Assembly (NCBI GenBank): GCA_019721035.1
Contig: JAHEAA010000001.1
Span: 39,991 to 103,990, forward strand
DNA length: 64,000 bases
Direction: 5' to 3'
Origin: Candidatus Sysuiplasma acidicola
GTDB lineage: Archaea > Thermoplasmatota > Thermoplasmata > Sysuiplasmatales > Sysuiplasmataceae
Shown in pieces: positions 3,574 through 21,255 of this stretch (its first letter is position 1; every line of letters starts with the position of its first letter). The position numbers were made by a program, and so were the translations under genes. The notes under the pieces are model-generated. The model worked only from the letters and a program-made list of their open reading frames with translations. It did not search any database and had not been told where the DNA came from.

Positions 3574-3593
3574 CAGGCGTCGTATAATCGTGA

Positions 3594-3956
3594 GTGAAAA
3601 CGCACTATTTACGATTGTTTATATTCTTAACCGGGATCATGTGGATTGTAACAATCGTCAGCGTTAGCGTGCCGCCGGTTCTGGCATTACACAGTTGTGG
3701 TGAATCAGGGATGAAAATATATTCGGAACTGTTTCCGATAAAGTATCTCTTTTCAGACAAGGGAATCTGTTTTGGTCTGGATACGAAACGCTGCTCGTAT
3801 CTCTTTCTTCTTTCAAAGAAAGGCGTTATTTTCAGCAAGAGACCTGTAGGAGACAAGGTTGTTGAAAACCTGGGGTATGAGATTGATCTTATTGAGAACG
3901 CAATAAAAATCAACGGCAAAATCGACGGCAAACGTGAAGAAAGCCGTATGCCATAG
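3594..3956 (+). CDS. Hypothetical small protein with an N-terminal hydrophobic segment
   Basis: 120-aa ORF in an otherwise empty gap. N-terminal TM or signal-like stretch LFIFLTGIMWIVTIVSVSV. No recognisable domain. Confidence 0.3.
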   Translation: MKTHYLRLFIFLTGIMWIVTIVSVSVPPVLALHSCGESGMKIYSELFPIKYLFSDKGICFGLDTKRCSYLFLLSKKGVIFSKRPVGDKVVENLGYEIDLIENAIKINGKIDGKREESRMP

Positions 3957-3977
3957 ATAGGTTACAGGCTGCTATAG

Positions 3978-4973
3978 TTGCACCTGAGCCAGCCAGGAGT
4001 GATATGGTATTTGTCCGATGGTCTGACAATGCGTGAACAGAGCAGTGACGAGGAACATCCTGACGCCATAAGCACATTTGAGCGTTTTGACTTTCAATCC
4101 CTCTGGCGCGGAAGAGAGAAGGTCATTTCAACGGAGCGTTTCATTCTCACTTCTCTTCTCAGCAGGACAGATGGAAGAAGAACGCTGGAAATTGGGACCG
4201 GGGAAGGCAGGCTGTCCGGCGTTGTGCAGTTAAATTCGCAGGAATATGTGGGCACCGACATCAATCCCTCCTTTCTGAACAGAATCTCCAGCTCTTGCGA
4301 AAACAGGAAGATGAGACTCCTGTCTTCCAACCTTTATCATCTGCCGTTCAGGGATAATTCGTTCACCACTGTTGTGATGATACGTGTCTTCAATTTTCTC
4401 TCGAAGCCCGAATCGGCAATGCAAGAGATAACAAGAGTGCTTGCCCCCGGAGGCAGCCTGGTAATGTCGTATAATCCGAAACCTTCCATTGCCACTTTCA
4501 TTGATGACCTGAAGGCAATCCTCAGATATTCCAGCATGGTGGGGGACAACTGGAAACCTGTGACATTTTCAACCGGAGATGTTGTCCGTATCCACCCCTC
4601 GTCTATTCCTGCTTTCTCATTCAGTGTCCGTTATTTCGCCAGGTTAATGAGCGAATCGGGCCTTGCGGCTGTTGCTGAGAGCGCATCCGGCCTGGAAGAT
4701 TACAGATTTGTCGACAGGTTACCAGATGAGCTCTTTCAAAAGATGGCATTCTCTCTTTACCGCATGCCAATGATGCCGACAAGGTTCGTGCTGGCAAGAA
4801 AAATCAATGGCAGCGGTAAACTGATCATGGAGGCAGACTCAATGTATTGCTGTCCTCAATGCAGGAGTTCGATTTGGCTTGACGATGCCTCCACTCAGAC
4901 ATTCTGCGGCACATGTGGATTTCGGAGAGACAATTGCGAAGGATTGCCGGATTTGAGATATTTTCCAGATTGA
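3978..4973 (+). CDS. Class I SAM-dependent methyltransferase with a C-terminal zinc ribbon
   Basis: 331 aa. Motif I LEIGTGEGRLSGVV, then YVGTDINPSFL, then PFRDNSFTTVVMIRVFNFLSKPESAMQEITRVLAPGGSLVMSY. The C-terminus has CCPQCRSS...CGTCGF (CxxC...CxxC). The true start may be an internal Met. Confidence 0.7.
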   Translation: MHLSQPGVIWYLSDGLTMREQSSDEEHPDAISTFERFDFQSLWRGREKVISTERFILTSLLSRTDGRRTLEIGTGEGRLSGVVQLNSQEYVGTDINPSFLNRISSSCENRKMRLLSSNLYHLPFRDNSFTTVVMIRVFNFLSKPESAMQEITRVLAPGGSLVMSYNPKPSIATFIDDLKAILRYSSMVGDNWKPVTFSTGDVVRIHPSSIPAFSFSVRYFARLMSESGLAAVAESASGLEDYRFVDRLPDELFQKMAFSLYRMPMMPTRFVLARKINGSGKLIMEADSMYCCPQCRSSIWLDDASTQTFCGTCGFRRDNCEGLPDLRYFPD

Positions 4974-5067
4974 GTTGCCATTGCTTGCACAGACATAACC
5001 GTTACAGACCGGAACTATGTTGCCGGCACTCCCCGGCCGCCTTCAGCGCCGATAGACTTCATACAAT

Positions 5068-6384
5068 GTGATTTCATCCTATCCCTATCAGCCACTGCCA
5101 AAGGTTTTAACGATCGTAATATTCTCCCAGTGGTCAGGCATGACCGCTCGTTCTGTAGCGCCTTCTCTCACAACCCTCCTTGCATCTTCCGCCTCTTTCA
5201 TAGATGGCTACAATCTCATAATAATCGCACCTGTGTTGCTCATACTTGGCGGCACGCCTTTTACAAGCCATTTCAACACAACTCTCATTGCCTCCTCGGC
5301 ACTCATAGGCAACTTCTTCGGTGCATTCTTCCTTGGCAACCTGTCCGACCGTCTGGGCCGCAAGTACATGCTGGTCTGGGACATTGTTTTCTTTGTTGTA
5401 TTCGCGCTTGCGAGTGCTCTCTCATCCAATGCACTGGAACTGTTTGTTACGCGCCTTCTTCTGGGCATCGGCATCGGCGGCGATTATCCTATAGGATCTA
5501 CGCTCGTGGCAGAACATTCGCCTGCGGCGAAGAGAGGGAGACAGACCGCCAAGCTTGGTTTTTCATGGACACTGGGTTTCTTCACGGCGATACTCACTGG
5601 CCTGATATTCCTTCCCGTCGGCGCCGATTCGTGGCGGTTTATGCTTGCCGCTCCGGCAATTCCCTCGCTAGTCATCATACTGATGAGACAAAGGGCCATG
5701 GAATCGCCTCTCTGGCAGTCGGAGGTAAAGGGCAGCGCCAGGGCTGGAAAGTCATCTCAGATATTCGGCAGGACGCTGATAAGAGCGACCGCTTTCGCAG
5801 CCTCGTTCTGGTTTATTTTCGATGTAGTTCAATACGGCATAACAACATATGCCCCGTCTGTTGTGAGTGAAATTGGTTTTGCGAGTCACGAGTCATCTCT
5901 TGCCGGATCACTGCTCATAGCCGCCATCGAACTGGTCGCAACGCTCATAGGTATGCGTTATGTGGATGTGCTGGGAAGGAGGATACTGCTCATTGTTGGA
6001 TTTGCAGGAATAGCTCTTTCAATGTTTATCGCTTCCATATCCGACAATATCTTCATCTCCCTCGGCATACTCCTCCTTTTTGCGCTTTCAACCGGGTTCG
6101 GACCTGGTATAATAGAATTCGTTCTGCCCCCGGAGCTGTTTCCCACAAATGTAAGATCTTCGGGTGCCGGATTCGCCAATACAATGAGCAGACTCGGAGC
6201 AGTCGTCGGCGTTGTGGTTCAACCGGTTCTCAAACAGGATTTCGGCATTCATTCTGTGTTCCTGCTTTACGGGTTCGTCGCCATGTGCGGTCTCACCATA
6301 ACATATTTTTTCGCACCTGAGACAATGGGCATATCTCTTTCAGGCATGGATGATGCAGCGCAGGAACAGCCTGCCGTCGGCTGA
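5068..6384 (+). CDS. MFS transporter
   Basis: 438 aa, about 12 predicted TM helices. MFS loop signature GNLSDRLGRKYML between TM2 and TM3. The start may be at internal Met 5140. Confidence 0.8.
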   Translation: MISSYPYQPLPKVLTIVIFSQWSGMTARSVAPSLTTLLASSASFIDGYNLIIIAPVLLILGGTPFTSHFNTTLIASSALIGNFFGAFFLGNLSDRLGRKYMLVWDIVFFVVFALASALSSNALELFVTRLLLGIGIGGDYPIGSTLVAEHSPAAKRGRQTAKLGFSWTLGFFTAILTGLIFLPVGADSWRFMLAAPAIPSLVIILMRQRAMESPLWQSEVKGSARAGKSSQIFGRTLIRATAFAASFWFIFDVVQYGITTYAPSVVSEIGFASHESSLAGSLLIAAIELVATLIGMRYVDVLGRRILLIVGFAGIALSMFIASISDNIFISLGILLLFALSTGFGPGIIEFVLPPELFPTNVRSSGAGFANTMSRLGAVVGVVVQPVLKQDFGIHSVFLLYGFVAMCGLTITYFFAPETMGISLSGMDDAAQEQPAVG

Positions 6385-6458: not shown

Positions 6459-7487
6459 TTGTTAATGGCGCTCGTTCCTGTCATTGAGGGATCAAGACTG
6501 CTTGTGGATTATGACGGCATCAGCAGCGCGGCTAAATCCAGGAAAGCAAAAACGGTCGCGCTGCAGCTGCCCGAAGGACTGAGGGCGTTTGCGTCACAGA
6601 TCGCCGGTAGAATAGAATCTTCCGCTTCAGTCGCCGTAATCATTGATTCGGAGCCATGTTTCGGCGCATGCGACATACCAACGCACCTGTTTGGTTCGGC
6701 GGACATGGTTGTGCAGCTGGGCCACACCGAGATGCCGAGCATCGGCGTTATGCCACGCATGTATTTTGCCAATATTTCTGTCGACATCGATCCGATACCT
6801 GTGGTCGAGAAGGCTATACCCCTTCTCAGCGGCACGGTTGGTGTTGTGACCACGGCCCAGCACATGCATTATCTCGACGGCATCATCTCATTCCTGAGGA
6901 GCAGGGGGGTGGAGGCGCTTTATTCAAGAGGTGATCGGAGACTCGGCGGATTCGCACAACTACTGGGTTGTGATTACACATCCGCGCGTGACATAGAAGA
7001 CAGGGTTGACTCCTTTCTCTATGTCGGGGACGGCGACTTTCATCCGATAGGTCTTGTTATGCTGAGCGACAGACCGCTCATTGCGGCTAATCCAATGAAC
7101 GGAACTGTGAGGACGCTGGATGCGCTCCGGGACATCATAATGAAGCAACGCCTGACGGCAATAGAGAGGGCCATGGGTGCGAAGTCGTTCGGAGTGCTGG
7201 TGAGCACGAAAGTCGGGCAGCGCAGGAGGGCACTGGCAGAAAAACTCGTATCCGAAGTGCAGGGCACAGGAAGAAGATCGTCGCTGATTCAGTCAAACGT
7301 CATATCGCCCGAACTTATCATGAGCTACGACTTCGACGCATTCACGTCCACCGCCTGTCCGCGGGTCGCAATAGATGATTTTTCGAAATACCCCCGGCCG
7401 TTGCTCACACCCATAGAAACAGAGATAGCACTGGGCATCAGAAAGTTTTCCGACTTCACTTTCGATCAGATACTTGCCGAACAATGA
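6459..7487 (+). CDS. dph2: Diphthamide biosynthesis enzyme Dph2, the 2-(3-amino-3-carboxypropyl)histidine synthase. This is a non-canonical radical-SAM enzyme.
   Basis: 342 aa, the same length as characterised archaeal Dph2. N-terminal VALQLPEGLRAFASQIAG, conserved Cys-containing segments (EPCFGACDI, TSTACPRVAIDD) and the three-domain layout. Dph2 is an archaeal and eukaryotic marker. Confidence 0.8.
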   Translation: MLMALVPVIEGSRLLVDYDGISSAAKSRKAKTVALQLPEGLRAFASQIAGRIESSASVAVIIDSEPCFGACDIPTHLFGSADMVVQLGHTEMPSIGVMPRMYFANISVDIDPIPVVEKAIPLLSGTVGVVTTAQHMHYLDGIISFLRSRGVEALYSRGDRRLGGFAQLLGCDYTSARDIEDRVDSFLYVGDGDFHPIGLVMLSDRPLIAANPMNGTVRTLDALRDIIMKQRLTAIERAMGAKSFGVLVSTKVGQRRRALAEKLVSEVQGTGRRSSLIQSNVISPELIMSYDFDAFTSTACPRVAIDDFSKYPRPLLTPIETEIALGIRKFSDFTFDQILAEQ

Positions 7488-7493
7488 ATGTCT

Positions 7494-8150
7494 CTATCGC
7501 CCTCTTTCATCTCCCCATATGTATTTGTGGAGCTGCGGCAGCACCCTGACCTCGAGGCCGTCCCTGAGCACTGTTTCTGCGAGCCATCCCATCTCTTTGC
7601 CACCCACAGGTGTCATTATGACTTCACACGGTATGCCGTTTTCGGACATCACCCTTCTGGCATATTCATAGTCTTTCCTGTCTGCAATTATGAATTTCAC
7701 CTGATCATGCCTGCCGAGTCGCTGCAGGTTGGAGAGCATGTTTCTGTCCTCCATCCCCGAACCGGGCAGTTTGATGTCCATGCTCACCGTTAGCCGCTCT
7801 GACGAGGGGAGACAAGACACATCGTACGCGCCGCTTGTTTCTACAACGACCCTGAAGCCTTCATCTAGCAGTCGGGTCGCAAGTTCGGCCGTTTCATCAC
7901 TCTGCATGAGCGGATCTCCTCCCGTGATGCATACATCCAGCACGCGCCTTTGTTTTGCCTCCGCTACAATGGATTCCACCGTCCACTCCGTTCCCTGGTC
8001 AGTGAGCAGAGCGTAAGGAGTGTCACACCATCTGCATCTGAGGTCGCAGCCTGCCGTGCGTATGAAGAGGGTTGGAAGGCCGATCATTATGCCTTCGCCC
8101 TGGATTGACTTGAAAATTTCATTTATTCTCATATTCCAACGGGTCCTCAA
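7494..8150 (-). CDS. queE: 7-carboxy-7-deazaguanine synthase QueE (radical SAM)
   Basis: 218 aa. INEIFKSIQGEGIMIGLPTLFIRTAGCDLRCRWCDTPYA is the QueE N-terminal Cx3Cx2C-variant cluster motif. Confidence 0.9.
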   Translation of the reverse strand: MRTRWNMRINEIFKSIQGEGIMIGLPTLFIRTAGCDLRCRWCDTPYALLTDQGTEWTVESIVAEAKQRRVLDVCITGGDPLMQSDETAELATRLLDEGFRVVVETSGAYDVSCLPSSERLTVSMDIKLPGSGMEDRNMLSNLQRLGRHDQVKFIIADRKDYEYARRVMSENGIPCEVIMTPVGGKEMGWLAETVLRDGLEVRVLPQLHKYIWGDERGR

Positions 8151-8805
8151 AACCCGCCTCCGTGAAACCCTTCAGTCTGAGAAGGCACGAATCGCAGACG
8201 CCGCACGCCTTCTCCCTTCCGTTGTAACAGCTCCAGCTCAGTTCATATGGAGCTCCAAGCTTTTTCCCCATCGACACGATGTCTGCCTTGCTCATGGATA
8301 TGAGCGGAGCGAGGACCACAGGCGATTTGCCTTCAATGCCCGCCTTTGTCGCGACTGCCGCCATCCTGTTAAATGCATCCAGGAATTCCGGCCTGCAGTC
8401 CGGGTACCCGCTGTAGTCCACGGCGTTGATGCCTGTATAGATGTGCCGGCATGCTCTTGCCTCTGCGATGGCAAGCGCGACTGCCAGAAACACAGTATTC
8501 CTGGCAGGAACGTAGGTCACAGGTATGCCTTTTGTTCCACCCACGGGCACTTCGACACTCGGGTCCGTCAGTGCGCTGCCGCCTATTTCGGAGAAATCGA
8601 CATTCATTGTTATCTGTTCGGCGCAGTAATGGCTTGCTATGCGGCGTGCAGCATCGACTTCTCTGGAATGCCTCTGTCCGTAGTCGACCGTCAGTGCTAT
8701 GAAGTGGATGTTCTCCGAATGCAGAAACGCCGCAACTGTTGTAGAATCAAGCCCGCCCGAGAGGAGCAGGACGGCCTCTCTCACGCCAGGTGACGTTCCG
8801 TCCAT
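8119..8805 (-). CDS. queC: 7-cyano-7-deazaguanine synthase QueC
   Basis: 228 aa. PP-loop LLLSGGLDSTTVAAFL, then DYGQRHSREVDAAR. The C-terminal Zn site is CYNGREKACGVCDSCLLR. Confidence 0.9.
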   Translation of the reverse strand: MDGTSPGVREAVLLLSGGLDSTTVAAFLHSENIHFIALTVDYGQRHSREVDAARRIASHYCAEQITMNVDFSEIGGSALTDPSVEVPVGGTKGIPVTYVPARNTVFLAVALAIAEARACRHIYTGINAVDYSGYPDCRPEFLDAFNRMAAVATKAGIEGKSPVVLAPLISMSKADIVSMGKKLGAPYELSWSCYNGREKACGVCDSCLLRLKGFTEAGFEDPLEYENK

Positions 8806-9257
8806 GCCTCCTGTCCCCTGCCTTCAGAAACGCCGACTGAAATTGATTTCACATTTCCGCCGAAAATGCCGCTTCCTGCGAGCTCCTCCGCGAAGTAGGC
8901 CGAGAGTTCCTCGGCGCTCACATTCTTCAGCGGCAGCATCACGACATCCGATACTGGAAAGATGTACCTCTTTCCGCCAAATTTCACGGAAACAGAATTG
9001 CCGCTCTGCCGTAAAGTCATAGACTTTCCCGATCCGGGCAAAAGCATCCTGTGGTCAATTCTGTCTATGAGTTTGTTGGCTGCCTCCTTCAGTTTCATGA
9101 AATCGAGTATTATGCCGTTCCTGTCCGGCTCGCCTTCCACCACTATTGTCAGCGCGTAATTATGTCCGTGCAGCCTGCTGCATTTCTCAACGGATGGAAG
9201 GAAATGCCCGGCCACAAACCTGATGCCCGCGTCCCAGCCGTTTATGGATATTTTCAT
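8781..9257 (-). CDS. queD: 6-carboxy-5,6,7,8-tetrahydropterin synthase QueD (PTPS family)
   Basis: 158 aa. MKISINGWDAGIRFVAGHFLPSVEKCSRLHGHNYALTIVVEG carries the Zn-binding His triad and the CxxxHGH motif of QueD/PTPS. Confidence 0.85.
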   Translation of the reverse strand: MKISINGWDAGIRFVAGHFLPSVEKCSRLHGHNYALTIVVEGEPDRNGIILDFMKLKEAANKLIDRIDHRMLLPGSGKSMTLRQSGNSVSVKFGGKRYIFPVSDVVMLPLKNVSAEELSAYFAEELAGSGIFGGNVKSISVGVSEGRGQEAWTERHLA

Positions 9258-9320
9258 TGAATTCTTCTCTCTCAGCAGTGCAAGAATCAGACAGTTTATG
9301 CATATTTAAGCGATGCGTCT

Positions 9321-9872
9321 TCATTGCCTGAGTTCCTCCCAAATCTCGATGAAACTGTCCACTATTGTTCCCGGCGGCGGTTCGTAGTTCAAAAGCAGCC
9401 GCGCCGTTTGTGCCTCGTTGGTCAGCCTGTACCCTCTGTCCTCTCCAGTAGAAGTCTTTGTTATGATGCCCCTCCTGGCGAGCTTGTTCAGATGATGTGA
9501 CAGCGTGGAAGGGGAAATGCCCATGGCCGGCAGCATATCTTTGTGTTGCGCGGTGCCATTCTTCAAAATAAAGAGAACAATCTGCAGTGGAATCCTCTGT
9601 CTGAGCAGCGCTATCGCCCTCTTCTCGTCCTGGGAGAGGGCATCCCTCTTCTGTTCTGCACCTATGGGATCTTTCGGATAATAACGCCTGTACTGCCCGT
9701 CGGATATTGCAGTGACTATGCCGTGCTTTTCAAGTGAATTCAGATGGTAATCCACAAGCGGAACGCTCTCTTCCAGTTGCCTTGCGATCTCCCTGAGATG
9801 GAGTCCAGGGAACTTGCAGACCTCCTCGAAAATCCGCTTCCTTGTCTGCAGCTCGAGGACGTCATCCTCCAA
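9321..9872 (-). CDS. Transcriptional regulator with two winged-helix (ArsR/MarR-like) domains
   Basis: 183 aa. Two HTH-like segments: LREIARQLEESVPLVDYHLNSLEKHGIV and DMLPAMGISPSTLSHHLNKLARRGIITK. Confidence 0.6.
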   Translation of the reverse strand: MEDDVLELQTRKRIFEEVCKFPGLHLREIARQLEESVPLVDYHLNSLEKHGIVTAISDGQYRRYYPKDPIGAEQKRDALSQDEKRAIALLRQRIPLQIVLFILKNGTAQHKDMLPAMGISPSTLSHHLNKLARRGIITKTSTGEDRGYRLTNEAQTARLLLNYEPPPGTIVDSFIEIWEELRQ

Positions 9873-9884
9873 TTAAGAATCCCC

Positions 9885-10175
9885 CTATCTCTTCAGCGTT
9901 GCGCCGAATATCAGTAGTAATATTGCAATGTCTATCAGACCAACTGCCGTGAAAAAGACCGGAAGAGCGAAAACAGGCTGGAAGAGCTCATAGGTGAAGA
10001 TGATGCCCTGAATAAAGAATAGGAAGAAGGAGACCGAAATCATTGCTATTCTTGCATTCCTCTTCTTCCTGAACGCGAGTATCGAAATGATGAAAAGGAC
10101 GAAGGCAACAACCGTGACCCATGCCGCCACGAAATTCTGGACTGTTGCGAAGCTTAGAAGGGACATTCCCTGCAC
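9885..10175 (-). CDS. Small integral membrane protein (2-3 TM helices)
   Basis: 96 aa, almost entirely hydrophobic helices with a KKRN cytoplasmic loop. Confidence 0.35.
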   Translation of the reverse strand: MQGMSLLSFATVQNFVAAWVTVVAFVLFIISILAFRKKRNARIAMISVSFFLFFIQGIIFTYELFQPVFALPVFFTAVGLIDIAILLLIFGATLKR

Positions 10176-12068: not shown

Positions 12069-12824
12069 ATGGTTTCAGAACTCGTGATAAAGGACCTGCG
12101 GGTCAGCATAGAGGGAAAGCAGATACTTAAAGGGATCAATCTCACTGTGAGGCAGGGAGAGGTCCACGCAATCATGGGACCGAACGGCTCGGGAAAGAGC
12201 ACTCTGAGTTACGCTCTGATGGGACACCCCAAGTATCATGTGACCGGTGGACAGGTGTTGCTGGACGGCGAGGATATCATGGCCCTGGCGCCGGACAAGA
12301 GGGCCAGATTGGGCCTCTTTCTAGGCTTTCAGTACCCGGTGGAAGTGCCCGGCGTGAGACTGGGCAATTTTCTCAGGATAGCTTATAACGGCGCTCACGC
12401 CGACAATCAGCTCAGCCCCACAAAGTTTTTCAGGCTGCTTAAGGAAAAGGTAAATCTCCTTGGCATCGATGAGAATTTCATAGGGCGCTCACTGAATGAA
12501 GGTTTCTCCGGCGGCGAAAAGAAAAGGGCTGAAGTGCTGCAGATGGCCGTGCTGCAGCCCAAATTCGGAATACTCGATGAGACAGACAGCGGCCTGGATA
12601 TTGATTCTCTCAAAATTGTTTCAAACGCGATAAACACCATGGCCGGTCCGGGCATCGGTCTCGTGCTGGTCACACACTACCAGCGTCTTCTGCAGTACAT
12701 CACACCGCAGTTTGTGCATGTTGTCGTGGATGGCAGAATAGTGAAGAGCGGCGGAAGAGAGCTGGCAAAGGAACTGGAGGAAAAAGGATATGACTGGCTC
12801 AAAGAACCGGCTATAACCGGGTAG
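12069..12824 (+). CDS. sufC: Fe-S cluster assembly ATPase SufC
   Basis: 251 aa. Walker A GPNGSGKSTL, ABC signature FSGGEKKR, Walker B ILDETDSGLD. A SufC-typical soluble ABC ATPase. Confidence 0.9.
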   Translation: MVSELVIKDLRVSIEGKQILKGINLTVRQGEVHAIMGPNGSGKSTLSYALMGHPKYHVTGGQVLLDGEDIMALAPDKRARLGLFLGFQYPVEVPGVRLGNFLRIAYNGAHADNQLSPTKFFRLLKEKVNLLGIDENFIGRSLNEGFSGGEKKRAEVLQMAVLQPKFGILDETDSGLDIDSLKIVSNAINTMAGPGIGLVLVTHYQRLLQYITPQFVHVVVDGRIVKSGGRELAKELEEKGYDWLKEPAITG

Positions 12825-12835
12825 AGGACATCGAC

Positions 12836-13213
12836 ATGGCATTTGACATTTATCAGGAAGAAATAATAGAACATTACAAGAAGCCTCAGAACAAGGGTGT
12901 GATAGAGCATCCGGACATGTTCAGCCACGGCAATAATCCGGTATGCGGTGATGACATAACTGTGTACCTTCGAGTCAACAACGATACAATCACTGATGTC
13001 AAGTTCGACGGACGCGGATGTGCCATAAGCCAGGCGTCCGCCTCCATGCTCACAGAAAAGGTGAAGGGCATGAAGCTGGCGGATGTTGCGAAGCTCACCG
13101 CAGACGACATAAAGGAGATGCTGCACATTCCACTCAGTGCTGTTAGAATGAAGTGTGCGACTCTTTCTCTTAACACGATTCATGAAGCAACAGCAGGAGG
13201 GGCTGTACGGTGA
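12836..13213 (+). CDS. sufU: Fe-S cluster scaffold / sulfur transferase, SufU-type (IscU/NifU-like)
   Basis: 125 aa. The three conserved Cys motifs are NPVCGDD, GRGCAISQASASM and RMKCATLSL. The KCATL motif is SufU-like rather than IscU HCSML. Confidence 0.75.
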   Translation: MAFDIYQEEIIEHYKKPQNKGVIEHPDMFSHGNNPVCGDDITVYLRVNNDTITDVKFDGRGCAISQASASMLTEKVKGMKLADVAKLTADDIKEMLHIPLSAVRMKCATLSLNTIHEATAGGAVR

Positions 13214-14142
13214 TTTGCAATGAAGTGAGAATGCAGTATGGTGACGACATACTGAGCAGGATAGGCAACACGCCTCTCCTGAGGCTCGAGAGGATCACGC
13301 AAGGCATGCCTCGAGTTCACATTTACGCAAAGGCGGAATGGTTCAACCCTGGAGGAAGTGTGAAGGACCGAACGGCGCTGGGTATCGTGGATGAGGCAAT
13401 AGTCTCGGGCAAACTCACAAAGAACAAAGTGCTGCTGGATGCTTCCTCGGGAAACACTGGCATAGCATACTCGATGATATGCGCTGTCAAGGGATTCAGA
13501 TCGACTATAGTGGTTCCCGGCAACATCGGGAAGGAGAAGCTCGAGATACTCAGGGCATACGGAGCAGAAGTAGTTCTCAGCAGCCCGATGGAAGGCACAG
13601 ACGGCTCGCAGAGACTTGCGAAAAAGATGGCCGAGCAGCATCCTGATCTCTACTTTTATGCAGACCAGTACAACAATGAAAGCAACTGGAAGGCTCACTA
13701 CTTACGCACTGGACGGGAGATTTTCGAACAGACAGAAGGTGAAATTGATTATTTCGTAGCCGGGCTCGGTACAGGCGGAACGTTTACCGGTGTGAGCCGC
13801 CTGCTGAAAGAGAGAAATAAATCAATAAGAACGGTGGCTGTCGAACCAGATTCCCCCTTGCACGGTATAGAGGGTCTGAAAAGAATGGACGCATCGGTGA
13901 GGCCCGGCATTTATGACGAGTCTATCGCTGATGAGCACGTCTATGTCAGCACCGAGGACGCGCAGAAGACGGTAATCAGAGCCGCCAGGACGGAAGGATT
14001 GCTTCTCGGCGTGAGCTCGGGAGCCGCGCTAAAGGCGTGCATGGACATAGCGGAGAGAGAAGGGAGAGGAAACATTGTGACGGTTTTTCCGGACAACGGT
14101 CAGCGGTATCTTGGCGAAAAGTTCTGGGAGGACAATCTATGA
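13210..14142 (+). CDS. cysM: PLP-dependent cysteine synthase homologue (CysK/CysM fold). Probable CysM-type enzyme that uses a protein thiocarboxylate.
   Basis: 310 aa. PLP-lysine motif GGSVKDRTALGIVDEA. Asn-loop and Gly-rich loop SSGNTGIAYS...GTGGTFTGV. The stop TGA overlaps the ATG of the downstream CysO-like gene (ATGA). Confidence 0.8.
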   Translation: MICNEVRMQYGDDILSRIGNTPLLRLERITQGMPRVHIYAKAEWFNPGGSVKDRTALGIVDEAIVSGKLTKNKVLLDASSGNTGIAYSMICAVKGFRSTIVVPGNIGKEKLEILRAYGAEVVLSSPMEGTDGSQRLAKKMAEQHPDLYFYADQYNNESNWKAHYLRTGREIFEQTEGEIDYFVAGLGTGGTFTGVSRLLKERNKSIRTVAVEPDSPLHGIEGLKRMDASVRPGIYDESIADEHVYVSTEDAQKTVIRAARTEGLLLGVSSGAALKACMDIAEREGRGNIVTVFPDNGQRYLGEKFWEDNL

Positions 14143-15569
14143 CTGCATCAAGTGTAAAGGTAATGATTCCCACGCCGCTAAGGCAGTATGTGGGTAACAG
14201 GGACACAGTTGAACTCAGGGGCGAGACGGTAGACGAAGTGCTGCGCAGTCTGGCCGATTCAAGCGTACAGCTGAAGAAACACCTGTATGACGACGGAGGG
14301 AAGATACGGAATTTCGTTAACGTGTACTTGAACGAGGAGGACATACGCTACCTTGAACGCGGCAGGACACAGGTCAGGGAAGGCGACGTGATAGCGATCA
14401 TTCCATCTATCGCCGGCGGCGCTGCCGGACTGGAGGAAGCATTCTCGTACGAAGACATACAGAGATACAGCCGCCATCTGCTTCTGCCCGAAGTGGGTCT
14501 GGAGGGCCAGCTCAAGCTGCGAAATTCCAGTGTGCTGGTTATCGGCGCGGGCGGTCTCGGCTCACCTCTGCTGCTTTATCTGGCCGCCGCGGGCGTAGGA
14601 ACAATTGGTATTGTCGACTTCGACACAGTCGACTTCAGCAACCTTCAGAGGCAGATTATACATTCACAGAAGGATGTCGGAAGGAAGAAAATCGATTCTG
14701 CGGAAGAGAAGATAAAGGGAATAAATCCGCACATCAGGGTCGTCAAGCATGAAGTTCAGATAACTTCTGAAAATGCGTTTGACATCATACGCAATTACGA
14801 CGTGGTGATAGACGGCACAGACAATTTTCCGACGCGTTACCTCGTCAACGATGCCTGCGTGCTGCTCGGAAAACCAAATGTCTACGGCTCCATTTACAGA
14901 TTCGAGGGACAGGTGTCGGTGTTCGATGCAAAAAGGGGTCCATGCTACAGGTGCCTGTATGAGAATCCCCCGCCTCCAGGACTCGTTCCATCCTGCGCAG
15001 AAGGAGGAGTCGTCGGCGTTCTTCCGGGAACGGTCGGAACGCTTCAGGCGATGGAAACAATCAAGCTAATACTCGGCCAGGGCGAACCGCTGATTGGTAG
15101 GCTTCTTCTGTTCGACGCGATGAAAATGCGCTTCAAGGAACTGAAACTCAGAAAGAATCCGGACTGTCCTGTCTGTGGAACCCATCCGACAGTGACCGAG
15201 CTCATAGACTACGAGCAGTTCTGCGGCATAACACATAATGCCGAAGCCGAAGGAGATGTGATTACTGTTGAGGAGCTGAACAGAAAATTCGGCGCAGGCG
15301 AATCGTTTGTGCTCCTCGATGTAAGGGAACCGCAGGAATGGGACATATGCCGCATAAACGGCGCGAAGCTCATTCCGATGAATGATGTCCCGGCAAGGGT
15401 AAGCGAACTCAATACGGCTGACGACATCATTGTGTACTGTAAGGCGGGACAGCGCAGCGCATACGTAATGAATTTCCTGAAGGATATCGGTTTCAGAAAG
15501 GTCAGGAATCTTAAGGGCGGCATCAATGCATGGGCGGAAAAAGTGGATCCGTCCTTGCCGAGGTACTGA
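14139..15569 (+). CDS. In-frame fusion of a CysO/ThiS/MoaD-like beta-grasp sulfur carrier (residues 1-96, ending ...IIPSIAGG) to a MoeZ/MoeB-type E1-like adenylyltransferase with a C-terminal rhodanese domain
   Basis: The first ~96 aa align along their length with M. tuberculosis CysO (IPTxLR...FVNxYxNEEDxRx...GDxxxIxPxxAGG). A 4-aa linker follows. Then E1 motifs RYSRHLLLPEVGLEGQLKL, GAGGLGSPLLLYLAAAGVG and a Zn tetracysteine CYRC...CPVC. The rhodanese domain has catalytic Cys in YCKAGQRS. No stop separates the GG from the E1 domain. The start is the ATG at 14139, which overlaps the cysM stop. Confidence 0.8.
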   Translation: MTASSVKVMIPTPLRQYVGNRDTVELRGETVDEVLRSLADSSVQLKKHLYDDGGKIRNFVNVYLNEEDIRYLERGRTQVREGDVIAIIPSIAGGAAGLEEAFSYEDIQRYSRHLLLPEVGLEGQLKLRNSSVLVIGAGGLGSPLLLYLAAAGVGTIGIVDFDTVDFSNLQRQIIHSQKDVGRKKIDSAEEKIKGINPHIRVVKHEVQITSENAFDIIRNYDVVIDGTDNFPTRYLVNDACVLLGKPNVYGSIYRFEGQVSVFDAKRGPCYRCLYENPPPPGLVPSCAEGGVVGVLPGTVGTLQAMETIKLILGQGEPLIGRLLLFDAMKMRFKELKLRKNPDCPVCGTHPTVTELIDYEQFCGITHNAEAEGDVITVEELNRKFGAGESFVLLDVREPQEWDICRINGAKLIPMNDVPARVSELNTADDIIVYCKAGQRSAYVMNFLKDIGFRKVRNLKGGINAWAEKVDPSLPRY

Positions 15570-15612
15570 CGATGAATATCAATGTGGCAGGTAATGAAAT
15601 GGAAGTGATTAA

Positions 15613-17016
15613 ATGGTAAACGAACAGGCAATAGATCGTGACTACAGCAAGTATGGATTCTATGATGAAGACGCGAAGTACGTCTTCCAGACCAAGAGAG
15701 GTCTGAGCAAAGAAGTCGTGGAAGCCATATCGAAACACAAGAATGAACCGCAGTGGATGCTGGACTTCAGACTCCGCTCGCTGGACTTGTTTAACCGGAA
15801 ACCGCTCCCCGCATGGGGCACGGATCTGAGCGAGATAGACTTCGATAGCATCTATTACTACATGGCGCCATCGGGCAAGAACAGCGACAGCTGGGACGAT
15901 GTGCCCGATTACGTGAAGAGAACATTCGACAAACTCGGGATACCGGAGGCGGAAAAGAAGTTCCTAGGCGGCGTCGGGGCTCAGTATGACAGCGAGGTCG
16001 TCTACCACAAGATACGCGAGGACCTGAGCAAGAAGGGTGTCATCTTCATGGGCACCGACGAGGGCCTTAGAGAGCATCCAGAAATATTCAAAGAATACTT
16101 CGGCACGATCATACCACCAGAAGACAACAAGTTTGCGGCGCTCAACAGCGCCGTCTGGAGCGGTGGCAGTTTCATCTATGTGCCGGAAGGCGTCGAGGTC
16201 GACATACCGCTGCAGGCGTATTTCAGGATCAATGCGAGGAGCGTCGGTCAGTTCGAGAGGACGCTGATCATAGCGGAGGAGAAGAGCCGCATACACTACA
16301 TCGAAGGCTGCACGGCACCGACATATTCCAAGGATTCGCTGCATTCCGCGGTCGTGGAGATACTGGCGAAGAAAGGTGCATACGTCCGCTATACCACCAT
16401 TCAGAACTGGTCCAACAATGTTTACAATCTGGTAACCAAGAGGGCGTTTGCGCATGAGGACGCGACCGTTGAGTGGATTGACGGAAACATAGGATCGAAA
16501 CTGACAATGAAATATCCGTCCGTATACCTGCTGGGACCAAGAGCAAAGGGTGAGGTGATATCCATAGCCTTTGCTGGCAGGGACCAGCATCAGGATGCCG
16601 GAGCGAAGATACTGCATTTCGCGCCTGAGACGACGTCGAGGATCACGTCGAAGAGTGTGAGCAAGGACGGCGGAAGGACAACATACCGCGGTCTCCTGCA
16701 CATAGAGAAGGGCGCCACTGCGTCAAAGAGCAGCGTCAGATGCGACGCACTGCTGCTTGACGAAAAGTCCAGAACGGACACATATCCATACAATGAGATT
16801 AATGAGGAGACTGCGTCGACAACGCACGAGGCAACAGTCGGAAAGATAAGTGAGGAGCAGCTGTTCTATCTGATGTCCAGGGGACTGAGCGAGGCAGACG
16901 CCCTCAACATGATCGTCATGGGTTTCCTCGACGTATTCTCGAAGGAACTTCCCATGGAGTATGCGGTCGAGCTGAACAGACTGATACAGCTCGAAATGAC
17001 CGGTTCCGTCGGGTGA
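15613..17016 (+). CDS. sufB: Fe-S cluster assembly protein SufB
   Basis: 467 aa. Conserved SufB core [23 protein letters not shown]. Length and homology extend across the whole protein. Confidence 0.9.
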
Positions 17017-18443
17017 ACCTGAAACGACGGTGCTCCGTTATGGCAGTAACAACACGCGACTTGCTCAAACCGGCCGAGTCGGACCTTCCCGAAATCATTG
17101 GTGAACCCACGTGGTTGAAGGAATATAGGAGACATGCACTGCGGGTGTTCAGCTCATCGAAGGTCGAACCGAATCCGCTGTATGTGAAGTATGAGACACT
17201 CACCAGGTTTGAGGCGGCGGGCGTGGCGGTCGCGGAGCCACCCGTAAAGACGGACAGCATAACGGGGGGTTTCGCCGATCTCGTTAGCAGCAGCACATTC
17301 ATGCTGCAGTCCGGAGGAGCGTTCCATATTGCAGGCGACCTGCCACCGGGCGTTATTTTCGAGGAGATGCACGATGCGATCACGAAACACGGCAATATGC
17401 TAAAGGAAGCATTCGGCAGGAAGGGTCTGAGTCCAGAGGACGACGTCTACGTCGCACTCAACAGTGCCATGTTCTCCTCCGGATATTTCCTGCATGTGCC
17501 GGACGGCGTCGTGCTTGAGAGCCCGATACACATACTCAATATCGAAGATGTTCCGGGCACCGCAAGATTCAACCAGAACATCGTGCAGATTGGTGATAAT
17601 GGCGGTGCAACTGTCATCGAGGAGATACTATCCCCTGAAGATTTCTCCCGGAAGTCGTTGTTTTCCAGCGTGACAGATGTGATGCTCGGCCGGAACGCAG
17701 AGCTGCATCATGCATCTCTTGAGAACCTTTCCTCCGGAGCAGTATACCTTTCCAGCAAGAGGTGTCTCGCCTCGAGCGACAGCAGGATGCACTGGGTTTC
17801 CAGCATGATGGGGTCGGATGTGACCAGATCGCGCGCTGATACCAGATTCGTGGGCCGTGGCGCATCTACTGACGATTACGAGATATTGTTCGGCAACGGC
17901 AAACAGCGATTTGACGTGGTGACCGATTTACACCACGATGTCGAGTCCACAAACGGCCGGATTACCGTCAGAAGCGTGCTGAAGGGACAGTCAAGGGCTC
18001 TTCTTCGCGGCATGATCAGGATTGGCGAGAATGCGGCGAATACAAACTCCTATCTTGCGGAACACGGCATGCTCATGAGCAAGGACGCAAAGTGCGACGC
18101 CATACCCGGACTGGAGATACTGACGAACGGCGTCAAGGCCACACACTCCGCGTCAGTTTCCCAGCTGGACGATCAGCAGCTGTATTACATTCAGTCGAGG
18201 GGTCTTGACAGGGATGAGGCCGAAAAGATGCTCGTTCTCGGTTTCTTTGATCCGGTGATTTCAAGAGTGCCGCTGGATACAATACGCGACAAGCTGCGAT
18301 TCCAGATAGAGGATAAATGGAACAATGTAGTATCGCTAAAAGCATCCAGGCATCTCGATGAAATTGAATTTGAGAAGTATGTCAAGGACCAGATCAAGGG
18401 ACCGGGAGAAAGCATTTTCGAAGGGCACTACAAGTACAGGTGA
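17013..18443 (+). CDS. sufD: Fe-S cluster assembly protein SufD
   Basis: 476 aa. SufB/SufD beta-helix family. ATGA overlap with the sufB stop. Position and length are typical of SufD. Confidence 0.85.
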
Positions 18444-18755
18444 GTGTCTTTGCCCTTCACAAAGGTGGCGTCCAGGACGGATTTTATGGGGCGAAGCATA
18501 AAGAAGGTCGATGTGGACGGCCGCAGCATCATGATAATAAGGCTGGGTGAAGAATACCACGCACTGGATGCCACGTGCACGCACGAGGACGCAGATTTGT
18601 CCAGAGGCATTCTCATGGGACGGACGATAGTGTGCCCCCTTCACCTGTCGCGATTCAGCGTCGACACCGGTGAAGTGGAGAATCCGCCGGCGACAGAGCA
18701 TCTGCAGAAGTATGAACTTAAAGTGGAAGGAGACGATATACTTGTCGAACTGTGA
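18444..18755 (+). CDS. Rieske [2Fe-2S] ferredoxin-like protein
   Basis: 103 aa. CTHEDADLSRGILMGRTIVCPLH is the CxH-x15-17-CxxH Rieske motif. Similar small Rieske proteins occur inside actinobacterial suf operons. Confidence 0.8.
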   Translation: MSLPFTKVASRTDFMGRSIKKVDVDGRSIMIIRLGEEYHALDATCTHEDADLSRGILMGRTIVCPLHLSRFSVDTGEVENPPATEHLQKYELKVEGDDILVEL

Positions 18756-20002
18756 GTGGAGCTTCCATGCATGCGCTTGACAGACTGGAACAAATTTCGC
18801 CTCTGAAGCGTGATTTTCCGATATTCTCGGAGAAGAGCAGGGAGTCGCTAGTCTATCTGGACAGTGCGGCAACCAGCCAGAAACCCGCCGTCGTCATAGA
18901 TGCAGTGGATGAATTCGAGAGGAGCTGCAACGCAAATGTGCACCGCGGCATATACCCTCTCAGCGAAGAAGCCACCGAACGATACGAAGACGCGAGGACC
19001 AAGGCTGCCCGTTTCATTGGTGCGCGTTCGCCTTCAGAAATAGTCTTCCTGCGGGGAACGACCGAGGCGCTGAATGTGCTGGCGCTGAGTTTCGGAACAT
19101 GGAAACTCAGGCGAGGCGACGAGGTGCTCACGACCGTAATGGAACATCATTCCAATATCGTGCCCTGGCAGATGCTCTCCTGGAAGGGTGTCGTCGTGAA
19201 ATTTGTCGATATCGACGAGAGGGGGCACATAGATATGGCCGATTTCGAAAGCAAGATCAGCGACAGGACGAAAATAGTCACCATCGCCCATGCGTCAAAC
19301 GTGCTTGGTACAGTGAATCCTATCAGGGAGATGGGAAGAATTGCACACGAACATTCGTCGACATTCATAGTGGACGGGGCTCAGTCCGCTCCCCATATTC
19401 CGCTCAACATGAAGGATTTGGAATGCGACTTTTTTGCGCTGTCGGGCCACAAGATGCTTGCACCCACCGGCATCGGCGTGCTGTATGGTCGCAGCGAACT
19501 GCTGCAGGAGATGGAACCGGCATTCGGCGGCGGTGAGATGATCAGCGAAGTGCATCAGCGCGGCTCAAAGTGGGCCGATCCGCCGTACAGGTTCGAGGCG
19601 GGCACTCCAAACATCAGCGGAGCGATTGGCCTCGGGGCCGCGATAGACTATCTCACCTCGATTGGAATGGAGAATGTGGAAAGATATGACAAGGAGATAC
19701 TTACCTATGCAATGAGCCGTCTTCTTGAGAACAAAGACATAGAAATATACGGTCCGACGGATATTGAGGAGAGGAGCGGCGTCATATCTTTCAACATCAG
19801 AGGCGTGCATGGCCACGATACGGCCGAAATACTGGGAAGGGAGGGTGTGGCGATAAGGTCCGGGCATCACTGTGCACAGCCGTTGATGGACAGACTCCAA
19901 ATACCGTCAACATCAAGGGCGTCATTCCAGATATACAACGGGCGGAGCGACATAGATGCCCTCGTGAACGCACTCGATGTTGTCAGAAAGGTGTTTGCCT
20001 GA
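18752..20002 (+). CDS. sufS: Cysteine desulfurase SufS (class II aminotransferase-V)
   Basis: 416 aa. PLP-Lys in ALSGHKMLAPTGIGVLYG. Catalytic Cys loop RSGHHCAQPLM is typical of SufS/CsdA group II. Confidence 0.9.
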   Translation: MSGASMHALDRLEQISPLKRDFPIFSEKSRESLVYLDSAATSQKPAVVIDAVDEFERSCNANVHRGIYPLSEEATERYEDARTKAARFIGARSPSEIVFLRGTTEALNVLALSFGTWKLRRGDEVLTTVMEHHSNIVPWQMLSWKGVVVKFVDIDERGHIDMADFESKISDRTKIVTIAHASNVLGTVNPIREMGRIAHEHSSTFIVDGAQSAPHIPLNMKDLECDFFALSGHKMLAPTGIGVLYGRSELLQEMEPAFGGGEMISEVHQRGSKWADPPYRFEAGTPNISGAIGLGAAIDYLTSIGMENVERYDKEILTYAMSRLLENKDIEIYGPTDIEERSGVISFNIRGVHGHDTAEILGREGVAIRSGHHCAQPLMDRLQIPSTSRASFQIYNGRSDIDALVNALDVVRKVFA

Positions 20003-20041
20003 AATACTCGTTTTGTTCATTGCTCCGGCGGAGCGCGATGA

Positions 20042-20473
20042 ATGGGTGATGCAATGGCGCTATACCTGCGAAACGACGTTTCCCGTTCCGTTATCAGACA
20101 CGCATCCGAGACATTTCCGGAGGAATGCTGCGGTTTCCTGATCGGTGAGGATGGAGGCGATCGGATGACGATGGAAGCACAGAGAGCAAGAAATTCTGCT
20201 ACAGAATCTAAAGGAAGCAGATATGTCATAGATCCTCTGGAAATAATGAAATGCGAAAGGGAATCTGCCTCCCGTGGACTCAGGGTGCTGGGTTACTACC
20301 ACTCCCATCCTGATCATCCTTCCATCCCCTCCGAATTCGACAGGCAGAATGCGTGGCCGGGCTACTCCTATCTCATTGTAAGCGTAATTTCCGGACACCC
20401 TTCAGGCATGCGGTCATGGCGGCTGACAGACGACAGATCACGTTTCGTCCGGGAAGAATTGTTTTATGAGTAA
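20042..20473 (+). CDS. JAMM/MPN+ (Mov34) zinc metalloprotease, Mec+/QbsD/HvJAMM-like
   Basis: 143 aa. EECCGFLIGE (Glu), then JAMM motif GYYHSHPDHPSIPSEFD (HxHx7Sx2D). Confidence 0.85.
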   Translation: MGDAMALYLRNDVSRSVIRHASETFPEECCGFLIGEDGGDRMTMEAQRARNSATESKGSRYVIDPLEIMKCERESASRGLRVLGYYHSHPDHPSIPSEFDRQNAWPGYSYLIVSVISGHPSGMRSWRLTDDRSRFVREELFYE

Positions 20474-20478
20474 ACTCC

Positions 20479-21255
20479 GTGCATCACCGTTGGTGTTGTG
20501 ATATGGACAGCAAGCTCAGATTTTCCGACAGAGCTTGCGACTATGCCCTCTACCGGCCTTCTTATCCCGCAGGCCTCATTGACGTGCTTGCATCGGAAGC
20601 GTCTTTTGCACCGGGATGTGTGGTGGCCGACGTCGGGGCAGGCACCGGAAAATTGTCCGCCCTTTTTGCTGACAGAGGTGCTGCAGTGTACTGCATAGAG
20701 CCGAACCCTGAAATGCTGCATGCTTGTATCAGTGAGCTAGGTGCAAGGAAGAACTGTCACTTCATACGGGCCACGGCAGAACGAACCGGCCTAGTCTCAG
20801 GCTCCGTGGACATCGTTTCGGCAGGACAGTCATTTCACTGGTTCGATGTGGAAGCTGCCCGGACGGAATTTCTGAGAGTGCTCCATCCCGACGGATGCGT
20901 ATTTATCGTCTGGAACACGAGAGACAACAAAGCGAACCCGTTCATGATTGAGTATGGTAAACTGTTGGAAAAACATGCCAGCCGGGGAGCGCCTGTCCTC
21001 AGCTCCGAGAGAGCCGGCATAGAGATACTTTTCGGGCAAAGCCGCTTCAAAAGCGGTGAACTGACAAATTCGCAGACGCTTGATTTGGCGGGTCTGATCG
21101 GAAGGTTGGCCTCTTCGTCCTATCTGCCGTCTAGAGGTTCTGTGGGCTACGACTCGATGCTGTCCGATGCGCTTGCTCTTTTCAAACGATTCGAGATCAA
21201 CGGACGGGTGCAATTGCTCTACAGAACGGAATATTTTATTGGAAGACCGGAATAG
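20479..21255 (+). CDS. Class I SAM-dependent methyltransferase (type 11)
   Basis: 258 aa. Motif I VVADVGAGTGKLSALFADRGAAVYCIEPNPEML. Starts 6 nt after the JAMM stop, so it is probably in the same operon. Confidence 0.7.
   Translation: MHHRWCCDMDSKLRFSDRACDYALYRPSYPAGLIDVLASEASFAPGCVVADVGAGTGKLSALFADRGAAVYCIEPNPEMLHACISELGARKNCHFIRATAERTGLVSGSVDIVSAGQSFHWFDVEAARTEFLRVLHPDGCVFIVWNTRDNKANPFMIEYGKLLEKHASRGAPVLSSERAGIEILFGQSRFKSGELTNSQTLDLAGLIGRLASSSYLPSRGSVGYDSMLSDALALFKRFEINGRVQLLYRTEYFIGRPE

Follow-up and report, generated by a model that had tools for sequence, protein, structure and literature searches.

A stretch of 64,000 nucleotides from the archaeon Candidatus Sysuiplasma acidicola (contig JAHEAA010000001.1, positions 39,991 to 103,990; referred to here as the window) carries on its + strand, at 14139-15569, an open reading frame (ORF) of 476 amino acids in which a CysO-like ubiquitin-like (Ubl) sulfur carrier, a linker, a MoeB-type E1 enzyme and a rhodanese domain follow one another in a single chain, as recognized from the ORF itself and from Pfam and NCBIfam. 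The best explanation of this fusion, and probably the correct one, is that it is a precursor cut after Gly94 by the JAMM protease of the same operon, its products then serving a cysteine pathway of the CysO/CysM/Mec+ type. The analysis shows the domains, their fusion and conservation, the signature of the site and the linkage of the genes; that the chain is cut, which protease cuts it, what the synthase uses and what the pathway yields are inferred.

The reading frame begins with an ATG at 14139 and continues without interruption to a stop codon at 15567-15569. A longer version starting from a GTG at 14037 is also given in the ORF listing, and the ATG was preferred because homologues begin there (e.g., P0001). 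Pfam recognizes three domains in the chain, ThiS at residues 8-94 (E = 2.8e-12; 47.4 bits, cut-off 22.5), ThiF at residues 110-345 (E = 4.4e-87) and Rhodanese at residues 376-467 (E = 5.8e-20). The carrier, a CysO-type ThiS/MoaD beta-grasp domain by its Pfam match and its resemblance to CysO structures in the PDB, occupies residues 1-94 (14139-14420) and ends in PSIAGG. The E1-like adenylyltransferase, with the Rossmann domain of ThiF and MoeB, is encoded at 14466-15173 according to Pfam and Foldseek, and the rhodanese domain, with its active-site loop C434-KAGQRS, at 15264-15539. Residues 91-94 are I-A-G-G (codons atc gcc ggc ggc, 14409-14420), with Gly93-Gly94 at 14415-14420. Straight after Gly94 come the codons gct gcc gga ctg (AAGL) with no stop, and past the glycines the frame runs on into AAGLEEAFSYEDIQRYSRHL, the conserved start of MoeB-type E1 enzymes. 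The initial annotation of this DNA had reported such an in-frame run-on, and this part of it stands; the four-residue linker that it placed at the junction does not, as the segment is not sharply bounded and disorder extends over about residues 91-100. The linker proper is placed at residues 95-100 (AAGLEE; 14421-14438) from the drop in conservation, the length of the spacer and the predicted local distance difference test (pLDDT) scores of an AlphaFold2 (AF2) model.

The same chain recurs widely. A search of a 5.8-billion-protein collection was evaluated for its best 120 matches, down to 62% identity, and the architecture PF02597 + PF00899 + PF00581 is present in 119 of them, with lengths of 466-502 aa. 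The lone exception (P0018) is a 335-aa fragment on an independent contig, 100% identical to the window protein. Another match (P0001), encoded on a 121-kb contig, is 476 aa long and 94% identical, and covers 100% of the query. In a locus scan with one genome per species, in which the best 80 loci were taken from at least 600 candidate stretches, the Ubl is joined to the E1 in 79 of 80 loci from different species, spanning more than 10 phyla. The fused loci belong to Acidobacteriota (Bryobacterales, Vicinamibacterales, Terriglobales, Blastocatellia), Gemmatimonadota, Thermoplasmata, Bacteroidota, Verrucomicrobiota, Armatimonadota, Cyanobacteriota, Eisenbacteria, Elusimicrobia, Chloroflexota and others. 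Closest in sequence, at 71-94% identity, are proteins from metagenome-assembled genomes (MAGs) of Thermoplasmata or Methanomassiliicoccales, whose contigs bear genes typical of archaea, among them those for diphthamide synthase and for the small subunit of DNA primase. Proteins with this architecture are present in databases in large numbers, are common in soil Acidobacteriota and Gemmatimonadota, and are usually labeled "molybdopterin-synthase adenylyltransferase MoeB."

The N-terminal domain is a carrier of the CysO type. Compared on its own (94 residues) with solved structures, it matches 4n6e_B (E = 4.5e-15) and M. tuberculosis CysO, 3dwg_C (E = 3.4e-14), and both alignments span its full length including the terminal AGG; weaker structure matches are to MoaD-related and SAMP proteins. 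With the Pfam ThiS match, these structures bear out the initial description of the N-terminal part as a CysO/ThiS-like beta-grasp domain ending in Gly-Gly, and the beta-grasp homology that had been set beforehand as its test is present. In the AF2 model, the mean pLDDT of 10-residue blocks lies between 82 and 94 over residues 1-90, and the pattern of strands and helices fits a beta-grasp. G93 and G94 are invariant in all 63 sequences of an alignment, as are P89 and A92, and the two glycines are also invariant in 120 of 120 sequences. The NCBIfam SAMP1 model gives 52.7 bits, below its cut-off.

The E1 and rhodanese parts carry strongly conserved motifs. In the 63-sequence alignment, G136, G138, G139 and G141 of the GxGxxG motif, R109 and R112, D228 and Cys286 are invariant in the E1, which also carries RYSRH and the motifs CYRC (269-272) and CPVC (343-346), these likewise invariant; C434, G437, R439 and S440 are invariant in the rhodanese domain. 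The Zn tetracysteine motif and the C-terminal rhodanese domain with an active-site Cys that had been annotated from the outset are therefore both real, the former as two CXXC motifs and the latter with its invariant C434 in the loop. The E1 part of the AF2 model superposes on MoeB (1jw9_B) in Foldseek with a template modeling (TM) score of 0.96 and a root-mean-square deviation of 1.8 Å, and ThiF also superposes. The best PDB match of the whole chain is Uba4, 6yub_A (phmmer E = 1.8e-71; Foldseek E = 1.1e-37). Among NCBIfam models, the E1 passes the subfamily PRK05690 (321.5, cut-off 266), misses the equivalogs MoeB PRK07411 (531.9, cut-off 633) and MoeZ PRK07878 (517.4, cut-off 647), and scores 361.9 with the SAMP-activating UbaA, also below cut-off. 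In MoeZ, the first CXXC is replaced by NYRD and the second is absent (PMC3227635). By this criterion the window enzyme is of the MoeB/MoeBR type and not of the MoeZ type, because it keeps both CXXC motifs. Of the earlier label "MoeZ + rhodanese," the E1 and the rhodanese remain; the MoeZ type falls, given the two CXXC motifs and the PRK07878 score under its cut-off.

Conservation breaks off at the junction between the two proteins. The hexapeptide before it is PSIAGG in 104, PSVAGG in 9 and PAIAGG in 7 of 120 sequences. In alignment A1, column identities from P89 to G94 are 1.00, 0.90, 0.90, 1.00, 1.00 and 1.00; they fall to 0.43, 0.19 and 0.27 after G94, are followed by about 30 indel columns, and return to 1.00 at R109. 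Averaged over segments of A1, column identity amounts to 0.70 in the Ubl and 0.82 in the E1, against 0.36 across residues 95-103. At P1′, directly after the second glycine, 62 of the 120 sequences have Ser and 39 have Ala (together 101, or 84%), and the residues in the others are mostly small. The spacer between GG and RYxR measures 12-42 aa with a median of 18, and 14 in the window. The domains of the AF2 model are well folded (mean pLDDT 86.4; predicted TM score 0.70), and pLDDT is below 50 in two segments only, the junction at residues 91-100 and residues 367-369. From sequence and model, the junction looks like a cleavage site, predicted to be cut between Gly94 and Ala95.

E1-type enzymes act on the last glycine of their carrier, adenylating its free C-terminal carboxylate. 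The encoded chain has no such carboxylate, as Gly94 is peptide-bonded to Ala95, and the carrier therefore cannot be charged before cutting. This chemistry and the drop in conservation past the glycines support the initial proposal that a carrier with a free GG requires proteolysis after GG. They leave no place for the alternative proposed with it, a self-charging single-chain E1-Ubl acting intramolecularly: because Gly94 is bonded to Ala95, an uncut chain would have no carboxylate to adenylate, and the idea is untenable. Self-cleavage at a P1′ Ser, either intein-like or through an N-to-O acyl shift, was likewise rejected as a general mechanism, since 39 of the 120 sequences, that of the window among them, have Ala at this position.

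A candidate for the cutting enzyme is encoded by the last gene of the operon, at 20042-20473 on the + strand. This JAMM/MPN+ metalloprotease of 143 aa matches Pfam Prok-JAB (E = 5.9e-25; 87.8 bits, cut-off 25) and the Salinibacter JAMM structure 2kcq (E = 2.8e-27). Its motif H87-S-H89-x7-S97-x2-D100 is intact, HSHPDHPSIPSEFD conforming to HxHx7Sx2D, and the upstream Glu (EECCG) is present. Its sole NCBIfam match is desampylase, at 91.2, below the cut-off of 130. The initial annotation had listed this protease as lying nearby; the protease is real by Prok-JAB and motif, and "nearby" understates its position at the end of the same tightly packed operon, in which it counts as a member and not a mere neighbor because the same gene order occurs in the relatives L081-L084. 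A JAMM homologue accompanies 72 of the 79 fused loci, in 68 of them directly upstream on the same strand (gap -4 to 260 bp), and a cysteine synthase accompanies 65 of the 79, the canonical order being cysM-JAMM-fusion. The JAMM is a candidate enzyme both for processing the precursor and for hydrolyzing CysO-Cys. The linkage and the published activities of other JAMM proteases, described below, lend support to the earlier nomination of this protein as the processing protease.

These elements can be assembled into a proposed sequence of events. Carrier (residues 1-94) and MoeB-type E1-rhodanese would be translated as one precursor chain, and the JAMM would cut the Gly94-Ala95 bond, exposing the Gly-Gly carboxylate and releasing carrier and E1 in a 1:1 ratio. 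The released E1 would then adenylate the freed carrier, the rhodanese persulfide would turn the carrier adenylate into a thiocarboxylate, and the adjacent cysteine synthase would condense this with an activated serine. After an S-to-N acyl shift, the same JAMM would hydrolyze CysO-Gly-Gly-Cys, yielding cysteine and the regenerated carrier. According to Burns et al. in 2005, this shift reportedly makes the CysO-Cys adduct an ordinary peptide bond. One JAMM would cut the same kind of bond, an alpha-peptide after CysO-GG, in maturation and in turnover; the operon JAMM is the most economical choice of protease because the bond between CysO-GG and Ala or Ser is of the same type as that between CysO-GG and Cys, which Mec+ cuts in every turnover. 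Likely benefits of the fusion are the 1:1 stoichiometry and the co-localization of the carrier with its E1.

The gene set resembles the CysO/MoeZR/CysM/Mec+ system of M. tuberculosis in having a CysO carrier ending in AGG, an E1 with a C-terminal rhodanese domain, a pyridoxal phosphate (PLP)-dependent cysteine synthase and a JAMM, clustered in an operon. It differs in the in-frame fusion of carrier and E1; in M. tuberculosis, cysO stands on its own and its product stops at GG. The M. tuberculosis moeZ gene presumably lies outside the mec-cysO-cysM operon. Further differences are the archaeal host, the SUF genes interspersed among those of the module, and a synthase that shows no special closeness to CysM of M. 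tuberculosis. M. tuberculosis MoeZR is without the second CXXC (PMC3227635), whereas the window E1 keeps both. In the CysO pathway, the E1-rhodanese makes CysO-COSH, CysM adds CysO-COSH to the aminoacrylate formed from O-phosphoserine, and Mec+ hydrolyzes CysO-Cys (PMC3227635). The eukaryotic Uba4/MOCS3 and its carrier Urm1 share the E1-rhodanese architecture and the order of adenylation and persulfide transfer leading to a thiocarboxylate; Urm1 differs in being a separate gene product without JAMM processing, with tRNA thiolation, molybdenum cofactor (Moco) synthesis and urmylation as its targets.

Cleavage of fused carriers after GG has precedents in molybdopterin synthesis. HvJAMM1 cuts linear SAMP1-MoaE precisely after GG; the fusion is inactive when uncut, and deletion of GG blocks cleavage (PMC4443979). 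DRJAMM similarly cuts Deinococcus MoaD-MoaE (PMC8832034). In M. tuberculosis, MoaX is active only after a cut at Gly82/Ser83, and Gly81 is needed for recognition (PMC4326299). These Ubl-MoaE fusions (MoaX, Deinococcus MoaD-MoaE and the engineered Haloferax SAMP1-MoaE) share with the window protein an N-terminal carrier of the ThiS/MoaD type and an internal Gly-Gly; they are inactive until cut after GG, are cut by a JAMM where this was tested, and have a small P1′ residue (Ser83 in MoaX). They differ in the partner, which is the downstream sulfur acceptor MoaE and not the activating E1, and in serving the molybdopterin pathway and not that of cysteine. A second parallel is offered by QbsE/QbsD and CxnE/CxnF: each carrier precursor runs on past GG, a dedicated JAMM is encoded in its cluster, and an E1-rhodanese serves as activator. 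In PMC5925218, QbsD and CxnF are proposed, though not shown, to trim carrier extensions of 2 and 10 residues. The extensions of QbsE and CxnE are thus of 2-10 residues, compared with an enzyme of about 380 residues here, and their products are secondary metabolites.

Intermediate forms are found among relatives of the carrier. An exhaustive HMMER search with the Ubl alone covered 1.84 billion representative proteins; among its best 150 CysO-like matches, of which many are fragments or poor reads so that counts are rough, 6 end exactly at GG and 23 are extended by 1-6 residues. Others are fused to an E1 or to a second Ubl (tandem ThiS; P0121, P0190, P0268), or continue past GG into TusA (P0242), a NIL domain (P0220, P0266) or a phosphatase-like domain (P0203), these seven having E-values of 1e-19 to 1e-30 with the window Ubl. 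That members of the CysO clade tend to have further residues or domains behind GG is clear nonetheless, and it agrees with a JAMM as an obligatory partner. In a split relative from a Thermoanaerobaculia MAG (L068), a free carrier ORF at 7253-7531 ends in VPAIAGGTR*, two residues past GG, and the E1-rhodanese lies at 8757-9896, about 1.2 kb downstream of the carrier with intervening sequence between them. Judged from this ending, the free carrier of L068 still appears to need trimming, and together with the many relatives having short extensions it links C-terminally extended carriers with the fused form. An Omnitrophota MAG (L074) has, at 3234-5279, a cysteine synthase followed directly by an unfused E1-rhodanese whose start precedes RYSRHL by about 11 residues; neither a Ubl nor a JAMM was detected on this 6.6-kb contig, and SUF genes adjoin upstream.

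Comparative surveys had already recorded much of this gene association. Operon type 4c of Iyer, Burroughs and Aravind (2006) combines ThiS/MoaD, E1-rhodanese, JAB and cysteine synthase, and Solibacter usitatus is listed for it (PMC1779556). This is the same gene set, and Solibacter usitatus belongs to the Bryobacterales, the order of loci L001-L004. The same authors propose that JAB frees ThiS/MoaD fused to other proteins (PMC1779556). Makarova and Koonin (2010) state that Ubl-E1 fusions are common to archaea and bacteria and that the E1s of Thermoplasma were acquired from bacteria (PMC2948915). The Thaumarchaeota Ubl-E1 fusion has no rhodanese, unlike the window fusion. The Campylobacter-type Ubl-ThiF fusion of Iyer et al. 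(2006) has a non-ThiS Ubl, sits in a thiamine operon and coexists with a free ThiS. The window fusion is of another kind, its Ubl being of the CysO type with GG, its context cysteine synthase, JAMM and SUF genes, with no second Ubl. Within what is accessible of the two surveys, the CysO-E1-rhodanese fusion is not singled out or analyzed.

Several observations weigh against the proposal that the operon JAMM cuts the precursor for a CysO-type cysteine pathway. The synthase, the E1 and the JAMM all fall below equivalog cut-offs, so the assignment to the CysO pathway rests on context. In five fused loci (L057, L061, L069, L073, L075) a search within 10 kb showed no JAMM, and each of them has 3.8 kb or more of sequence upstream. 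Where a JAMM is linked, product release of the Mec+ type fully explains the linkage, which therefore does not prove a role in processing. The window linker is among the shortest of the family (14 aa against a median of 18) and could limit access of a protease. Lastly, a literature search (excluding Burroughs et al., 2009) found no paper that analyzes or tests a CysO-E1-rhodanese fusion.

Among the competing explanations, one accepts the processing and disputes its product: the main output might be another thiolation (of tRNA, a cofactor or Fe-S sulfur) instead of free cysteine, or the carrier might in the archaeon modify proteins in the manner of SAMP, the JAMM then removing it from its conjugates. 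The NCBIfam matches of Ubl, E1 and JAMM to SAMP1, UbaA and desampylase point this way, all three below cut-off, as do the embedding of the genes in a SUF operon and the dual service of M. tuberculosis MoeZR to the Moco and cysteine pathways (PMC3227635). We regard this outcome as unlikely, however, given that a cysteine synthase gene adjoins the fusion gene, its stop codon overlapping the start of the latter in the window, and that 65 of the 79 fused loci include such a synthase; that the structure most similar to the carrier is that of CysO in complex with CysM (3dwg); and that the archaeal copies look like acquisitions of a bacterial cysM-JAMM-fusion operon.

A different possibility is that the fusion is never cut, the Ubl being a regulatory or docking module or a pseudo-substrate of the E1, with a free carrier encoded elsewhere. 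The five fused loci without a nearby JAMM would agree with this, and Iyer et al. (2006) infer a different role for the fused Ubl in Ubl-ThiF fusions that coexist with a free-standing ThiS. The 64 kb of genome visible here also leave room for a carrier gene elsewhere. Within the window, however, no free-standing ThiS/MoaD was found when ORFs of at least 40 aa were checked for a GG terminus and searched by phmmer with the Ubl, which returned the fusion only, and no second Ubl gene is present in the 79 fused loci. The fused domain is moreover a bona fide CysO homologue and not a divergent Ubl, and conservation of GG and the preceding P-S-I-A over more than 10 phyla, with variable residues next to them, would be unexpected for a mere docking domain. 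A fusion that stays intact is thus distinctly improbable.

Cleavage after GG could also fall to another enzyme, a housekeeping protease or the chain itself, leaving the JAMM only as a Mec+-like hydrolase of CysO-Cys. Besides the fact that the Mec+ role accounts fully for the JAMM linkage, this draws on M. tuberculosis MoaX, for which the study did not identify the protease and which E. coli processed incorrectly (PMC4326299). But a second enzyme is unnecessary if Mec+-type chemistry already hydrolyzes the alpha-peptide bond after CysO-GG, JAMMs do cleave linear Ubl fusions in Haloferax and Deinococcus, and the small P1′ residue (Ser/Ala) resembles the natural Cys; autoprocessing in particular is disfavored by the Ala that one third of the sequences, the window protein among them, have at P1′. 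We consider a separate protease quite improbable. Finally, the worry voiced in the initial annotation, that the fusion is a sequencing or assembly artefact in which a lost stop codon or a frameshift joined two genes, can be dismissed with near certainty, as the same architecture and frame recur in 119 of the 120 database clusters, which stem from independent projects, and among species genomes in 79 of 80, the 94%-identical 476-aa protein and the 100%-identical fragment sit on other contigs, and L081-L084 have separate gene calls of the fusion.

The operon that contains the precursor gene, sufC-sufU-cysM-fusion-sufB-sufD-Rieske-sufS-JAMM, is tightly packed on the + strand at 12069-20473. It comprises sufC at 12069-12824 (NCBIfam SufC, 342.6 bits, cut-off 212.8), sufU at 12836-13213 (SufU, 116.1 bits, cut-off 92.5), a PLP cysteine synthase of the CysK/CysM family at 13210-14142 (Pfam PALP, E = 4e-68) and, downstream of the fusion, sufB at 15613-17016 (SufB, 716.9 bits, cut-off 346.4), sufD at 17013-18443 (SufD, 226.4, cut-off 222), a Rieske ferredoxin at 18444-18755 (Pfam Rieske, E = 3.1e-16) and sufS at 18752-20002 (SufS, 564.1, cut-off 475.1), followed by the JAMM gene. 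The ATG of the fusion overlaps the TGA stop of the cysteine synthase gene (ATGA, 14139-14142), a typical coupled arrangement. The best NCBIfam match of the synthase is cysM, TIGR01138, with 324.6 bits, under the equivalog cut-off of 394.2. Compared with cysteine synthases in the PDB, it matches CysK with E = 1e-66; M. tuberculosis CysM, 3dwg_A (E = 8e-50), is not among its top matches. The gene order of the window is kept in relatives at 83% and 71% identity (L081-L084). Other Thermoplasmata (L005, L044, L050, L058) have the canonical cysM-JAMM-fusion order with SUF genes alongside, and a SufS-like gene lies near the fusion in 12 of 79 loci. The interleaving of the cysteine module with SUF may couple cysteine synthesis from protein-bound sulfide to Fe-S assembly, and the siting in the SUF operon of this Thermoplasmata lineage would have cysteine synthesis and Fe-S cluster assembly co-expressed. 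Alternatively, SufS may supply the rhodanese domain with persulfide.

The genes around the operon are of other kinds. Five bp after the JAMM gene, at 20479-21255 (+), lies a class I S-adenosylmethionine (SAM)-dependent methyltransferase (Methyltransf_11, E = 9.8e-18), which may lie outside the function of the operon because the gene following the JAMM is on the opposite strand in L081 and L083. On the - strand at 7494-9257, the window has ORFs that correspond, on the basis of synteny only, to the radical-SAM, QueC and PTPS (QueD-like) genes at 3356-5122 of L081. In the relatives, this radical-SAM/QueC/PTPS set is a 7-deazaguanine (archaeosine precursor) cluster, and genes for helix-turn-helix regulators lie between it and sufC.

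Identity and gene order also have a bearing on the history of the fusion. The window protein is 56-60% identical to the fusions of the other Thermoplasmata (L005, L044, L050, L058) and 52-66% identical to the listed bacterial ones, with 63% for several Bryobacterales and Gemmatimonadales loci, and is thus not nearer to the archaeal than to the bacterial proteins. The order cysM-JAMM-fusion is found in those four Thermoplasmata loci and in bacteria, and the JAMM stands at the operon end in the window lineage. This pattern suggests that the genes came from bacteria by horizontal transfer, perhaps in more than one event, and were rearranged afterwards.

A bolder version of the precursor proposal treats the fusion as a JAMM-gated pro-enzyme, in which the uncut, tethered CysO would sit on its own E1 with both inactive, and the JAMM would control start-up as well as every turnover. 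We think this unlikely; if it were true, JAMM activity (e.g., through metal or redox state) would set when protected, protein-bound sulfide begins to flow into cysteine and then into SufS/SufU/SufBCD.

The locus is an archaeal, SUF-embedded addition to the carrier-E1 fusions, a large set of wide phylogenetic spread that is simply annotated as "MoeB." The archaeal, SUF-embedded member is new; JAMM-linked sulfur-carrier precursors were already known and the architecture is common. No new field is opened by it, because the concept (2006; PMC1779556) and close experimental precedents have already been published. Should cleavage by the JAMM prove true, the processing rule for Ubl-MoaE fusions would extend to a Ubl fused to its own E1, and one protease would serve both maturation of the precursor and release of the product. 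Under the same condition, the genes now labeled "MoeB" would call for new annotation, each as the precursor of two proteins in a cysteine pathway of the CysO type. The arrangement offers a prokaryotic parallel to ubiquitin, which is synthesized within fusion proteins from which a deubiquitinase releases it.

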